64,000 bases of DNA from a virus, in the IMG/VR virus record IMGVR_UViG_3300017917_003607, positions 32,001-96,000 of that record. One strand, written 5' to 3'. Below the pieces are notes generated by a model that was not told the DNA's origin, did no database searches, and saw only the letters and a list, made by a program, of their open reading frames with translations. The translations under genes were made by a program, and so were the position numbers. Positions 16,693 through 61,464 of this stretch are shown here, one piece after another; position 1 is the stretch's first letter, and every line of letters begins with the position of its first letter.

Positions 16693-19600
16693 TTAGATAT
16701 TTTCAAAAGAAGCACCTGTTGGAGTAATTAAGAATTCAATATCTATAAATTCAAGTGCTTTAGTTGGTTTAAGGTAAATTTTACCTGTTAAAGTATTTCT
16801 GTCTAAGTCTTCAGGTGTATTTGTTACAACAACTCTAAAGTCAATCAAACCTCTATCTCTTCTTATTGAATCCAAAATTGGGTTAACAGAATCCAAGAAG
16901 TCCTGTCTAACTTTATCGTCGTTTTGTTCAAACAACAACCTTACAGCCACAGCCGAAATCAATTTACGAGCTTGTAACAACAATCTTCTTACGTTGATTC
17001 TATCAAGAGCTGATTGTGCAACTTGTGTTGTTTTATTACCCCAAATCAAAGTTCCCACATCAGAGAAAGTTGCAATTGGGTTAATTCTTCCTTGATAAAG
17101 TGTATCTCTATCATCTTGTGTAAGTTTTTTACGTGCTTTGATTGAACTTACGATACCTCTTGTGTAACCCGCAGATGCGAACCATGGGAAAGAAATATTA
17201 TCAGTTAACGCTAAGTTTTTACAAACCTCAGCAGTTGGAGGTAAATAAATCTGTGTATTGTTTACTGTATCTCTTGTTAATACCCAAGGATAATAAGTTG
17301 CGGTGTAATTTGAATCTATACCCGCAGTATCTAAGTTGTCTACCGCTTCTGTTGGGTAAATCAAATCAGTTGCTGGTGTTGTTGAGGTAGGTGCAAATAA
17401 ATCATAATCAGGACATGTCATGATGTATAATGAATCCGCTCTTTGAGATTCAATCATATCAATAGCATCTGCAACTAAATTAGAGTTATTAACAAAATCA
17501 ATACCTGGAGTAACAAAAACGTTGATATTTGTAGCTTCAGGATTTGCAAATGTTTCTTGTCCTAAAAGATATGCGTAATAGTCTGTGTTTGCCCAATCAG
17601 TTGCGTTGTTGTTTATTACTATTCTTTTGAATGCTCCCCAACCTGTCGCGTCAGGAAACTGAGATGAAGGTGCCGCTCCTTTTTTATAGTTACCACCACC
17701 TAAAACATAATCATCACCATTAGTTCTATATTTTCTGTAGATATCCCATCCGTCAAAACCACCATTTACAAATAGAGTAAATTTACGTGATTGTAATCTG
17801 TAGTAAGGGTCTGTAGAACTTGTTGGGTCAGAGGTAAAAGACGCAGCTCCAACCTCAAACGCCGAAGTTCCTGAAGTACTAAATGACGATGAAATAGTTA
17901 CAACTGTTGCCCCACTATCCATATGGAAACCTTTAGATTTGTAATCCCAAGGTGTTGAGGTTGTTGCCTCTGCAATATCACTAGGTGTTTGTTTACCCTT
18001 ATAGTCAAAAAACTCAGAGTCATAACCTATTGTATCTGAAAGACCTAAGAAAGTTCTATTTATTTTATCACCCGAACTTCTTTGTACTGAAGAAAATGGT
18101 GGTTGGAAAGTAATTTCACCAGCGGTAAAATATTTAGTTTTGTATGTTGGGAAAGGAGTTAAAGCTCCATTATAATTTCTCATTGAGTATCCTTCAAAAC
18201 CACAAGGTAGTGCGTCTACAGGTGCTTCAGGATTAATTTCCAACATTACAAACTTAGACCTCTGTTGATATTCGCCATCACTTGTTCCTATTTTTACACC
18301 CACAAAACTGTTTGAATTTGGGTTCATAGAACAATTTGTAAATTTCTCCAAATATACAGGGTTAGCGTCAGTGTCGTTGAAAGCTCTAATACCAACATCA
18401 AAAGTTCCGTTGTTAAATGATATGTTGAGTATTGATATTTTTATTTCTTGGTTTGCTGCGTTACCGTCAGATATTGAAATAAATTTAAATAATTGATAAA
18501 CTTTATTACCTCTCAATTCTGAAACCAAATAAGGTGTTTCAGGAGTTTGGTATTGTTCTAAGTACCAACCAATTGATGTAAGCGTTCCATTATCGTCTTG
18601 TGCAGAAGGTAAAGAGGTCAAGTTAGAACTTATACCTCTAATATAACCTTTCTTATAACCGTAGTTTAATAAATTACTAAATTCTTCTTCAACAAATAAA
18701 GGTACTTGTTCACTTGGTTTTGCAAAGTTTGAAAGACCTAAAACTCTAGAAATGTAATTACTATCTGTCGAGTCCATAGAAACTTTAAACTCAAATGAAG
18801 TTCCGTTATTTGAAACCCCTGATATGCCAAATGGTGAATAAGGACTAAAAGTCGCTGCTGAATATACGCTATTAAAATCTAAAGTAACATCACTTGTTCC
18901 CGATACAACCCAAACAGGATTTACCGAAGATGTGTATGTAGAAACACCTCTTGAGCGAAGTGTTGCAACTACCACATTATTATACTCAGTAAATGCAGTA
19001 CCGATTTGTGTGAAACCTGAAACAGAAACTGAACCTGAGAATTGTCCTGCGACACCATAAGTAGTTCCTGACAAAGTATTTACCCTTGAAATAAACGAGT
19101 AACCTGAATAAGCGTTTCCTGTTGTAGGTTTAAATTGTGCGTAATACCAAGCGTCGTTATCTCTACTACCATAAGTGGTCAAACTATCTTTAACACTTGG
19201 TACATTATATACGTTAGTAATTCCTGTCCATCCCGCACCTGTTAGGGCATCATATCTTGCATCTGGAACCGTACCGAAAACATATGCTGATGTACCACTT
19301 GTTGCAGGTGTTGCAAATACACCACTTAGTAAAGATTTTAATTTAGCCGAAATACTTGTTGAAGTACCATTATTTAAACTTAATACTCTATTCAAATCAG
19401 AATTAAATATTGCGGAAGAAGTTGAGCCAAGCTCAATTGTTGAGGTTCCGCCAGTTGTTCCTGTAAATGTTACGATTACTTCAGTGAGTGAAGAATTCTG
19501 AGAAACAGAACCACCACTTACGTTTGCTATTGTTTTGATTGACCAAGAAGGTCCCGCATCATAACCCGAAAGTCCTAATACTCTTGTAACAAACAATTGA

Positions 19601-19866
19601 TTAGATTGTTGTAAATAAGCCTTTGCAATATAGGCCGCTTCGTATTTAGGGATTTGTGTTTCCACGAATTTTTCAGGAGTTGTTCCACCAAACACTGTTT
19701 GGAATTGGTCAAAATCTGAAATGAAAATAGGTTCAAATGCTGGTCCCTTTAAGGTTTCACCAACAATGCCCAAAGTTGTAACACCTACACTTTGTGCTAC
19801 GAATGATAAATCACGTTCTGAAGTATAAACTCCAGGTGAAACGAATACTTTATTGGATGTTGCCAT
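16693..19866 (-). CDS. tail sheath protein (T4 gp18-like)
   Basis: N-terminal FVSPGVYTSERDLS; C-terminal PWFASAGYTRG, INPIATF, WGNKT, DRINVRRLL, FEQND, EFIDIEF. Confidence 0.95.
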   Translation of the reverse strand: MATSNKVFVSPGVYTSERDLSFVAQSVGVTTLGIVGETLKGPAFEPIFISDFDQFQTVFGGTTPEKFVETQIPKYEAAYIAKAYLQQSNQLFVTRVLGLSGYDAGPSWSIKTIANVSGGSVSQNSSLTEVIVTFTGTTGGTSTIELGSTSSAIFNSDLNRVLSLNNGTSTSISAKLKSLLSGVFATPATSGTSAYVFGTVPDARYDALTGAGWTGITNVYNVPSVKDSLTTYGSRDNDAWYYAQFKPTTGNAYSGYSFISRVNTLSGTTYGVAGQFSGSVSVSGFTQIGTAFTEYNNVVVATLRSRGVSTYTSSVNPVWVVSGTSDVTLDFNSVYSAATFSPYSPFGISGVSNNGTSFEFKVSMDSTDSNYISRVLGLSNFAKPSEQVPLFVEEEFSNLLNYGYKKGYIRGISSNLTSLPSAQDDNGTLTSIGWYLEQYQTPETPYLVSELRGNKVYQLFKFISISDGNAANQEIKISILNISFNNGTFDVGIRAFNDTDANPVYLEKFTNCSMNPNSNSFVGVKIGTSDGEYQQRSKFVMLEINPEAPVDALPCGFEGYSMRNYNGALTPFPTYKTKYFTAGEITFQPPFSSVQRSSGDKINRTFLGLSDTIGYDSEFFDYKGKQTPSDIAEATTSTPWDYKSKGFHMDSGATVVTISSSFSTSGTSAFEVGAASFTSDPTSSTDPYYRLQSRKFTLFVNGGFDGWDIYRKYRTNGDDYVLGGGNYKKGAAPSSQFPDATGWGAFKRIVINNNATDWANTDYYAYLLGQETFANPEATNINVFVTPGIDFVNNSNLVADAIDMIESQRADSLYIMTCPDYDLFAPTSTTPATDLIYPTEAVDNLDTAGIDSNYTATYYPWVLTRDTVNNTQIYLPPTAEVCKNLALTDNISFPWFASAGYTRGIVSSIKARKKLTQDDRDTLYQGRINPIATFSDVGTLIWGNKTTQVAQSALDRINVRRLLLQARKLISAVAVRLLFEQNDDKVRQDFLDSVNPILDSIRRDRGLIDFRVVVTNTPEDLDRNTLTGKIYLKPTKALEFIDIEFLITPTGASFENI

Positions 19867-19903
19867 TATTTTTAATTTTTCTTTTTACGGTTTTATTTTT
19901 ATA

Positions 19904-59966: not shown

Positions 59967-59970
59967 GTTA

Positions 59971-61464
59971 ATGTCTATACACAAATCATATCTAAATAGA
60001 AATAATACAATTATTTATAATAGTTCTACAAACACAGGACAAAATCCTGTTACAGAACTTTTTTTTGGTAGGGTAGATAATACACTATCAACGCCAGGAT
60101 TTTCAAGATTCATATTCAATATAGATTTAACAGAACTTACAAACAAAATATCTTCAGGTGTAATATACACAGGAAGTCCAATGACACACGTATTCAAAAT
60201 GACCAATACAATTATGTATAATTATGAATTACTGAATACAACAACATCAGATGGTAGAAAAAGAGCAACAGGTTTTAATTTAAATTTACATAGAATACCT
60301 AAATATAACCTTACAGGTTCTTCTCAAAATTGGGACGAAGGTGTTGGATATGATTATTACGATAATTCAAACATCAACTCTTCTAATGCAAGTTTAAGTT
60401 CACAAAACTATAGAGACAACGACAAATCTTACTCCAATAGACCATCTAATTGGACAAAAGCAACAACAATTAGTGGGTGGAGTGAATCAGGAATATATAA
60501 CAACATAAACAGTGGTAGTTCTGTAAATTATTCAGCACTAACTTTGGTGGATACTCAATATTTTGAATTTGGAAATGAAAATATTGAGTTTGATATGACT
60601 AACGAAATAAATAGTATTTTAACAGGTGGGACTACAGGGGTTACTGGTTACATAATATCTTTTGACCCAGAACTAGAAAATATAACAGGACTTACAGAAA
60701 ATTATTCCGTTGGTTTTTTTACTCGCCACACACAAACTTTTTATGAACCATTTTTGGAAACATCATATGATGATTTAATTTTAGATAATAGAACAAGTTT
60801 TTTTGAAAAGAAAATAAATAAGTTATATCTATATTCATATATTGATGGGGTACCAACTAATTTAGATTTTAACCCTACAGTTACGATAGAAGACTCGAAT
60901 GGTGATATACCTACAAACTGCACAGGATTAACTACAACATTGAGGACTGAGGGTATTTATGAGGTTTCAGTACCACCAATTACTGGTTATACAACCCCAT
61001 GTCAATTCAGTGATATTTGGAGTGGATGTACTTTGAATGGTATAAGTATTGGTAACATAACAAATGAATTTGTTTTAAGACCATACGGTGAGTATTATCA
61101 AATAGGGATTAATTCTAAAGACCCTCAGACATACGGATTTACTTTTTCAGGAATAAAACAAGATGAGAAAATTATTAATACAGACCTAAGGAAGGTTGTA
61201 TTACAAATTAAACAAGCGTATACATCCAACGTAGTTTACCCCAATTTTAAAGCTTACTATAGAATCTTTGTTAAAGAAGGTAAAACAGAGGTTAACGTAC
61301 AAGATTGGACAAGAATAAATCAAACATCAAATGAATATTATTTTATGTTTGACACTAAAGACAAAATACCAAATGAATATTTTGTCGATATTAAAGTATT
61401 AACTTCAGGTGAGGTAGATATTTATAAAAGACAACTAAAATTTCAAATAGTTAATCAAAAATGA
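59971..61464 (+). CDS. putative structural beta-sandwich protein
   Basis: 497 aa, Thr/Ser/Asn-rich; NWDEGVG and FFTRHT motifs; late motif upstream. Confidence 0.7.
   Translation: MSIHKSYLNRNNTIIYNSSTNTGQNPVTELFFGRVDNTLSTPGFSRFIFNIDLTELTNKISSGVIYTGSPMTHVFKMTNTIMYNYELLNTTTSDGRKRATGFNLNLHRIPKYNLTGSSQNWDEGVGYDYYDNSNINSSNASLSSQNYRDNDKSYSNRPSNWTKATTISGWSESGIYNNINSGSSVNYSALTLVDTQYFEFGNENIEFDMTNEINSILTGGTTGVTGYIISFDPELENITGLTENYSVGFFTRHTQTFYEPFLETSYDDLILDNRTSFFEKKINKLYLYSYIDGVPTNLDFNPTVTIEDSNGDIPTNCTGLTTTLRTEGIYEVSVPPITGYTTPCQFSDIWSGCTLNGISIGNITNEFVLRPYGEYYQIGINSKDPQTYGFTFSGIKQDEKIINTDLRKVVLQIKQAYTSNVVYPNFKAYYRIFVKEGKTEVNVQDWTRINQTSNEYYFMFDTKDKIPNEYFVDIKVLTSGEVDIYKRQLKFQIVNQK

Follow-up and report, generated by a model that had tools for sequence, protein, structure and literature searches.

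A short serine/threonine-glycine motif on outward-facing tail proteins and a candidate phage-encoded glycosylation system in an uncultured T4-like freshwater jumbo phage

A 64,000-nucleotide stretch of virus DNA (hereafter the window; bases 32001-96000 of the single 111,691-bp IMG/VR record IMGVR_UViG_3300017917_003607, 33% G+C) encoded several tail proteins in which a short motif, serine or threonine followed by glycine, any residue, and serine or threonine ([ST]G.[ST]), was over-represented, together with an island of glycosyltransferase (GT) and sugar-modifying genes. On the sequence evidence the motif is a selected short linear motif on outward-facing parts of the tail. An initial annotation had proposed that phage GTs glycosylate the virion at this motif; both the motif and the soluble GT/sugar island proved real, and the link between them is what we infer here. 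Our reading, tentative and in our estimate a little short of an even chance, is that the motif is an O-glycosylation acceptor (sequon) for the phage's own soluble GTs, with sugar attachment, the modified sites and the enzyme responsible all proposed on the basis of the comparisons below. The record (G000) was rated 36% complete by CheckV, giving a genome of roughly 300 kb, and was compared with a 190-kb relative (G001, 63% complete) and a complete 360-kb relative with terminal repeats (G003).

Expected motif counts were obtained for each protein from 1000 composition-preserving shuffles. The strongest carrier was p634, a 634-aa lectin-like (jelly-roll) core protein (32454..34358, minus strand), with 15 [ST]G.[ST] sites against 1.9 expected (z 9.9) and a further six [ST]A.[ST] sites against 0.4. 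It was followed by a 497-aa motif-rich protein with no assigned fold (59971..61464, plus strand; 9 against 1.4, z 6.9), the 1057-aa tail sheath (16693..19866, minus strand; 13 against 3.5, z 5.3) and an 878-aa mucin-like fibre protein (29818..32454, minus strand; 21 against 9.5, z 4.0). No shuffle reached the observed count for any of these four proteins, while the other 50 window proteins carried [ST]G.[ST] at expectation. All counts of the initial annotation were reproduced, including those of the polymerase (0), the helicase (1) and the sheath insertion, where it had seen about ten sites and where 10 of the 13 sheath sites fell at residues 117-352. Additional carriers lay outside the window: a SprB-like protein, a LamG protein and proteins of 374, 985 and 1796 aa. 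Across the whole 111.7-kb contig, with collagen-like repeats masked, nine proteins of the tail, baseplate and fibre module held 113 sites against 30.4 expected, and the remaining 91 open reading frames (ORFs) held 43 against 35.0. The same picture was found in G001, where the orthologue of the 497-aa protein had 10 sites against 1.1 expected, and in the complete G003. A 2885-aa protein of G003 (317411-326068, minus strand, loci L321-L322), encoded directly upstream of its glycan island, had 78 sites against 23.4.

The excess was specific to the order of the residues. Permuted words ([ST].G[ST], G[ST].[ST] and others) stood at expectation in the carriers, and in an unbiased scan of 8000 a-b-x-c patterns SG.T (36 against 6.6, P 2e-15) and TG.T (44 against 10.0, P 2e-15) ranked top, with SG.S and SA.T also within the top seven. 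The resulting logo reads hydrophobic(-1)-[S/T]-[G>A]-x-[T>S], with a hydrophobic residue at position -1 in 60% of sites against a background of 34%, and a T:S ratio of 119:31 at position +3. The composition-corrected comparison of structural with other proteins that the initial annotation had suggested therefore gave an excess beyond S/T/G composition, and a composition artefact was ruled out by the shuffles and the permuted motifs. A DNA-level motif was ruled out as well: serine at position 0 was encoded by codons of both the TCN and AGY families (TCA 0.42, AGT 0.40), which points to selection on the protein. The carriers shared no BLASTP similarity apart from the internal duplication in the 878-aa protein, bearing out the earlier description of a motif scattered through unrelated proteins and, with the collagen repeats masked, arguing against an artefact of repeats or homology.

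Within the carriers the sites were found either in the outer insertion of the sheath or in a module downstream of the baseplate wedge gene. The sheath was identified by phrog_23 (E 2e-56) and by Pfam sheath domains on residues 742-1055, and a ~600-aa outer insertion held 12 of its 13 sites; by homology with T4 gp18, we take this insertion to be the outer domains. The 878-aa protein combined long Pro/Thr tracts with two copies of a motif-rich beta domain (residues 104-241 and 522-667, 60% identical), and had no homologue in G001. Long Pro/Thr tracts also occurred in four proteins encoded upstream; p634, the 497-aa protein and the sheath had neither Pro/Thr nor collagen tracts. Two fibre proteins with (G-S/T-S)n repeats matched Pfam Collagen (E 4e-23); a G-x-T/S acceptor pattern is thus present inside collagen-like repeats, with most motif sites outside them. 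Proline-free collagen-like (G-S-S / G-T-S)n fibre proteins are encoded upstream of the window (genome 1-6869), at L107:4782-6869 and L107:1-1030, both on the minus strand, and several of their neighbours contain (T/S)-P mucin-like linkers and Cys-rich modules.

The motif was restricted to the sheath insertion and a set of fibre-like and lectin-like proteins. One correction to the initial annotation is that the motif is not virion-wide: the gp23-like major capsid protein had 2 sites against 1.4 expected and the tail tube none, and neither these two nor the hub, a 1568-aa protein of tape-measure size or a 2119-aa tail protein showed an excess. Structural modules of T4, Flavobacterium phage immuto and Microcystis phage Mel-JY01, including their sheaths and S/T/G-rich fibres, gave only a trivial excess (z<2), as did the sheath region of LR756508, a 484-kb phage with a related sheath and no GT404 (the conserved GT described below). 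Phapecoctavirus showed no motif excess. The SprB-like protein of the phage reached z 7.8, compared with 0.3-1.5 for bacterial SprB-repeat proteins. As the sheaths and fibres of other phages and the bacterial SprB repeats lack the excess, the motif is not a property of these folds, and a generic feature of phage fibres, sheaths or SprB repeats was ruled out by these controls. Equal enrichment in phages lacking GTs, which the initial annotation had named as contrary evidence, was likewise not seen, the excess being absent from the phages without these GTs. The motif is also distinct, as had been claimed, from the Bacteroidota sequon D-(S/T)-(A/I/L/V/M/T), which occurred 0 times against 2.1 expected in p634, and 0 against 1.9, 2 against 3.7 and 9 against 5.0 in other window proteins among the four counted.

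Conservation followed the motif. Among 63 sheath homologues, its S/T residues were kept as S/T in 87% of sequences, compared with 65% for other S/T residues of the insertion. The p634 family, sampled by 59 sequences that were 52-91% identical, had a median z of 9.1 and a minimum of 3.6, with a median of -0.3 for the permuted control; over 134 representatives down to 34% identity, z exceeded 3 in 107 and fell below 2 in 16, which clustered in two clades. Motif-poor members were P0338, P0342, P0375 and P0380 in one of these clades and P0266, P0286, P0282, P0296 and P0256 in the other. An alignment of 74 p634 sequences (49% mean pairwise identity) gave a median of 15 sites per protein, of which 8 lay in columns common to at least half of the family while the rest turned over; density was maintained at 11-24 per protein despite this turnover. 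Deeply conserved p634 sites changed S<->T, G<->A and T<->S and left x unconstrained (one such site reads T49/S23 - G74 - x - T72), and motif substitutions overall were mostly S<->T, G<->A/S and T<->S.

The AlphaFold2 (AF2) model of p634 was of moderate quality (predicted local distance difference test, pLDDT, 60.7; predicted template modelling score, pTM, 0.68) and formed a beta sandwich, whose best Foldseek matches were the PilC lectin module, clostridial neurotoxin Hc and AbnA domain 4. These are lectin-like jelly rolls matched at E ~2e-3, and they bear out the name LamG-like, first given to this protein, only loosely. In the model, low-confidence loops or their edges hold most motif sites, commonly right ahead of a beta strand, and in six cases the final Thr coincides with a strand start or falls within 1-2 residues of one. 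A tight beta-hairpin turn was considered as the role of the motif and found no support in this model (pLDDT as above), where sites are mostly loop-to-strand junctions rather than strand-turn-strand.

The glycan island occupies the plus strand next to the tail module. The roughly nine GT-like genes counted by eye were close to the mark: seven genes with eight GT domains had Pfam or PHROG support, namely GT404, a 546-aa protein with GT2_5 and GT4 domains (GT546), a 220-aa PHROG-supported GT (GT220), a 224-aa GT2, a GT11, a Glyco_trans_1_2 and a 269-aa GT2 (GT2-269). Nucleotide-sugar tailoring enzymes, also foreseen in the initial annotation, were present by Pfam, including a GDP-mannose 4,6-dehydratase. 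The island opens with GT404 (36889..38103; phrog_7162, E 1e-48), a GT4-type GT-B glycosyltransferase by AF2 and Foldseek, after which genes for a PolB-type 3'-5' exonuclease, a dUTPase and a HAD phosphatase are interspersed (38103..39775; Pfam). A conserved left arm with GT546 and GT220 follows (39775..42061; Pfam E 1.5e-26 and 6e-15; phrog_14945). Next comes a swappable sugar cassette of 13 genes (42058..51349; Pfam), which encodes three FkbM methyltransferases, GT2, GT11, a FabH-like protein, a hexapeptide acyltransferase, a PhyH dioxygenase, a short DegT-like protein, the GDP-mannose 4,6-dehydratase and Glyco_trans_1_2. A conserved right arm (51359..55590; Pfam) holds PhoH, unknown proteins of 207 and 351 aa, GT2-269 and a 253-aa unknown protein. 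The DegT/LegC-like aminotransferase (window 48280-48879, plus strand) is only 199 aa long and matches only model positions ~30-87 and ~187-257; as the short form is kept in the distant G003, with 62% identity over its full length, a functional, shortened variant is a likelier explanation than a pseudogene.

Among the 30 proteins encoded at 34.4-56 kb, a crude predictor found no 19-residue stretch with a mean hydropathy of >=1.6. Without such a membrane-like segment the island would encode no flippase, polymerase or lipid-linked initiating transferase, which favours an acceptor in the cytoplasm. No island protein matched TPR at E<=0.01, and the two GT2 proteins (224 and 269 aa) had no extra domain. 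Pfam and PHROG scans of most ORFs of the 111.7-kb contig found no kinase, acyl-, ADP-ribosyl- or other protein-modifying enzyme.

Island content differed between close relatives as in hypervariable islands, with 13 genes replaced in G001 between flanks that are 70-90% identical. In the left arm GT404 was 84% identical to its G001 counterpart, and GT546 and GT220 each 75%; the right arm, with PhoH at 90%, GT2-269 at 70% and three unknown proteins, ranged over 69-90% in G001 and 31-52% in G003. None of the 13 genes of the 9-kb middle had a homologue in G001, which at the same site encodes a nucleotidyltransferase, a class II aldolase, a kinase, a GT61 and a weak RXYLT1-like match, and 5 of the 13 recur in the distant G003. 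The middle thus behaves as an exchangeable cassette.

GT404 has at least 8000 relatives at >=71% identity. Its AF2 model (pLDDT 78.7) had GlgM, PglA, MshA and BshA as top Foldseek matches and indicates a GT4-type GT-B enzyme unlike the T4 DNA glucosyltransferases BGT and AGT; a sequence search of GT404 and GT546 against PDB found nothing. Between distant relatives GT404 was 50-57% identical where the polymerase was ~34-40% and p634 25-39%, an unusual degree of conservation for an accessory glycosyltransferase that suggests an essential role, and we regard it as the candidate initiating enzyme. Of 80 diverse loci, 56 had it at a distance of 2.5-9 kb from p634, and for loci without GT404 in their flanks, all five whole records searched carried it elsewhere. 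The co-occurrence across related phages that the initial annotation had proposed to examine was thus found, GT404 being present in every motif-rich genome tested, in a comparison made up of motif-rich genomes only. Mel-JY01 and LR756508 had neither GT404 nor the motif. The megaphage LR756501 carries a 36% identical GT404 homologue, and no sheath was found there.

In the mechanism that we propose, soluble phage GTs would O-glycosylate [S/T]-[G/A]-x-[T>S] in the host cytoplasm. The conserved GT404, GT546, GT220 and GT2-269 would lay down a core glycan, to which the middle cassette would supply and add strain-specific decorated sugars, such as 6-deoxy or amino sugars derived from the GDP-mannose dehydratase, together with acylation, O-methylation and a fucosyl-type transfer. 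The fibres repeat this word in tandem in their proline-free collagen-like (G-S/T-S)n stretches, and the Pro/Thr tracts could serve as additional acceptors. An acceptor is the most economical reading since hydroxyl residues are required and the sites fall on outward parts of unrelated proteins; it is also favoured because the phage copy of a host-type (SprB) domain has gained the motif, and because the motif travels with a conserved set of soluble GTs flanking a variable cassette. Extended to the lineage, the proposal becomes somewhat more speculative: a clade of abundant ~300-kb freshwater jumbo phages might possess a dedicated sequon, [S/T]-[G/A]-x-[T/S], read by a soluble GT4-type enzyme that is conserved throughout the clade, with the cassette extending the glycan into a strain-specific tail coat that would act as serotypes or a glycan shield.

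Several observations weigh against this acceptor reading. Nothing in the island looks like a known protein O-glycosyltransferase: GT404 is a generic GT4, and domain searches turned up neither TPR nor BAHT nor Maf. Mycobacteriophages use the major capsid protein and tail tube as acceptors; the motif is missing from both here. The co-occurrence with GTs has no negative arm, every related genome reached having both features, and scans of viral and metagenome contigs for p634 relatives yielded almost only motif-rich ones. Phapecoctavirus encodes GT404 homologues (27-32% identical) without an excess of the motif, so that a distant homologue is not sufficient. A few sites accept D/N at position 0 (sheath site 117), as in Asx/ST turns, and the near-invariant Gly, together with the frequent placement at strand starts in the model, also fits a structural role. 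The Pro/Thr tracts and collagen-like repeats offer alternative or additional acceptors. Proteins outside the virion show no avoidance of the motif (43 against 35), which we take as uninformative.

The structural possibility can be put in a form that keeps the island: its enzymes would glycosylate the virion at the Pro/Thr tracts and (G-S/T-S)n repeats, and the dispersed tetrapeptide would be mainly a loop-to-strand cap. Such acceptors are available in the tracts of the 878-aa protein and the four upstream proteins and in the two fibres matching Pfam Collagen, and Pro/Thr linkers, like collagen-like G-x-T repeats, are well documented as carriers of O-glycans (PMC7157674, PMC10050317). In the p634 model, moreover, the final Thr of the motif frequently opens a strand, and conserved sites almost never depart from Gly. 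A cap, however, would be expected in similar folds elsewhere, and it does not appear in bacterial SprB repeats or in the sheaths and fibres of other phages. The collagen repeat is the same word in tandem, suggesting one recognition rule, and p634, the 497-aa protein and the sheath are the strongest carriers yet have neither kind of tract. We consider this explanation unlikely, and we hold just as low an opinion of one in which motif and island are unrelated, the island glycan being destined for the host envelope during infection, as suggested for 'LPS' clusters of cyanophages, or for the phage DNA, and the motif serving the tail proteins of this clade in a structural or binding role of its own. 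In T4-like cyanophages, large GT and sugar clusters have been read as modifying the host surface or DNA (PMC12801897), the exonuclease, dUTPase and HAD phosphatase genes sit between GT404 and GT546, and the Phapecoctavirus homologues of GT404 adjoin primase and helicase genes in genomes without the motif. Counting against it, neither a membrane protein nor a flippase, polymerase or lipid-linked enzyme for initiation was seen in the island, and GT404 folds like GT4 enzymes and not like BGT or AGT. Nor did the incomplete G000 (36%) and G001 (63%) have a match to PF00303, the thymidylate synthase family, and the complete G003 had one strong ThyA-type match with no second, hydroxymethylase-like copy. 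Two unrelated functions would also leave the motif unexplained. The G003 match (286 bits; 13868-15166, minus strand, locus L305) lies in a 457-aa frame that is longer than the usual ThyA and may be a fusion.

Recognition of the motif by something other than a GT, be it another modification, a fibre-assembly chaperone or a shared glycan-binding loop, seems to us quite improbable. The hydroxyls at positions 0 and +3 are kept while x is free, and the carriers are adhesin-like (LamG, SprB-like, lectin-like), as such recognition might have it; against it, the scans of most contig ORFs revealed no other protein-modifying enzyme, and 10-20 scattered copies per protein, in folds unrelated to one another, are not what one would expect of a binding loop.

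The comparisons identify the phage as an uncultured, distant T4-like myovirus from freshwater. Genes for tail sheath, tube, baseplate hub and wedge, portal, terminase, prohead protease, gp23-like major capsid protein, PolB, helicase and PhoH were identified in the record, and no close cultured phage was found, the best sheath matches being Mel-JY01 and immuto at 31-37% identity. The sheath is encoded in >590 IMG/VR stretches at 60-86% identity, and p634 has 1627 relatives. As the nearest cellular relatives of the phage's SprB-repeat protein are in Flavobacterium, other Bacteroidota and Saprospira, the host is probably a member of the Bacteroidota. Moraphages, freshwater phages of 200-307 kb with predicted Bacteroidota hosts and four core GT groups (PMC12619734), and the present clade may perhaps be one lineage.

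Other features of the window lie around the tail module and island. An ORF (23563-25125, plus strand) encodes a complete Fe/Mn superoxide dismutase (Pfam Sod_Fe_N and Sod_Fe_C, residues 43-233) fused to a ~290-aa C-terminal part without assignment, and is 72% identical in G001. Between p634 and the glycan island, a protein conserved in close relatives (34407-35108, plus strand) matches DUF3721 at its N-terminus (PF12518, E 6.5e-14). The sequence TATTTATA (coding strand) precedes many start codons of both strands at a distance of 5-40 nt, for example at window positions 12425-12432, 15565-15572, 23541-23548, 25126-25133, 55605-55612, 59959-59966 and 63694-63701. In a late-promoter scan TATAAATA occurred 20 times on either strand against 12.3 expected, and the scan for TATAAATA and its complement TATTTATA gave no clear timing for the glycan island. 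This element may be a late promoter or a translation-initiation element.

The closest parallels to the acceptor reading come from bacterial spore proteins and from viruses that glycosylate their own particles. BclA of Bacillus anthracis and BclA3 of Clostridioides difficile carry collagen-like G-P-T repeats O-glycosylated on Thr/Ser (PMC7157674, PMC10050317, PMC12357932), and the soluble enzyme SgtA, which modifies BclA3, is active on short peptides, taking Ser as well as Thr (PMC7157674). The acceptor word T-G-x-T and the collagen-like (G-S/T-S)n fibres of the phage resemble this system. Further sugars of these systems include anthrose, an acylated, O-methylated 4-amino-4,6-dideoxyhexose (PMC6222408, PMC10050317), and the dehydratase, aminotransferase-like, acyltransferase and methyltransferase genes of the island recall anthrose chemistry. 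Unlike the phage island, in which no TPR was found, SgtA combines a GT-A domain with TPR and is encoded beside its substrate gene (a comparison of architecture); the phage sites are mostly single and dispersed on folded beta domains instead of in a triple helix, and here the setting is a phage that probably infects Bacteroidota. Virions of the mycobacteriophages Che8, Corndog and Myrna are glycosylated by phage GTs (Freeman et al. 2023, as cited in PMC12619734). In that account, as proposed here, the phage encodes its own GTs, which there act on its structural proteins in the cytoplasm; the glycans it describes are at the C-termini of capsid and tail tube subunits, whereas the sites here are internal in sheath, baseplate and fibre proteins, and the present island is much larger and has a swappable cassette.

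The cyanophages P-SSM2, S-SCSM1 and S-SCSM2R (PMC12801897) are likewise large T4-like aquatic phages rich in soluble GTs and enzymes of sugar-nucleotide metabolism, with islands that are hypervariable, and the four conserved GT genes of this clade parallel the four core GT groups of moraphages; both papers (PMC12801897, PMC12619734) suggest the host surface or DNA as the target, and neither describes an acceptor motif. General O-glycosylation in Bacteroidota, the probable host phylum, is also guided by a short sequon, but it is periplasmic and lipid-linked, whereas the phage island has no membrane protein and the Bacteroidota sequon is not enriched. Wzx/Wzy- or ABC-type polysaccharide clusters differ from the island in the same way, as the crude hydropathy predictor found no membrane transferase, flippase, polymerase or exporter in its 30 proteins. 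Among eukaryotic viruses, chloroviruses and giant viruses glycosylate capsids or fibrils with virus-encoded enzymes (PMC9614988), and there too a viral GDP-mannose dehydratase, methyltransferases and GTs decorate the virus's own particle; the enzymes are different, and in chloroviruses the glycans are N-linked at atypical sequons (PMC9614988).

If the acceptor reading is correct, it would provide tailed phages with their first defined O-glycosylation sequon, and virion glycosylation would extend from mycobacteriophages to very abundant aquatic jumbo phages with probable Bacteroidota hosts. The short tag and its soluble enzyme set might be of use in glyco-engineering. For the phages themselves, the large GT islands of big aquatic phages would be assigned a target, and the swapping of cassettes between close relatives would be explained as variation of the particle surface.

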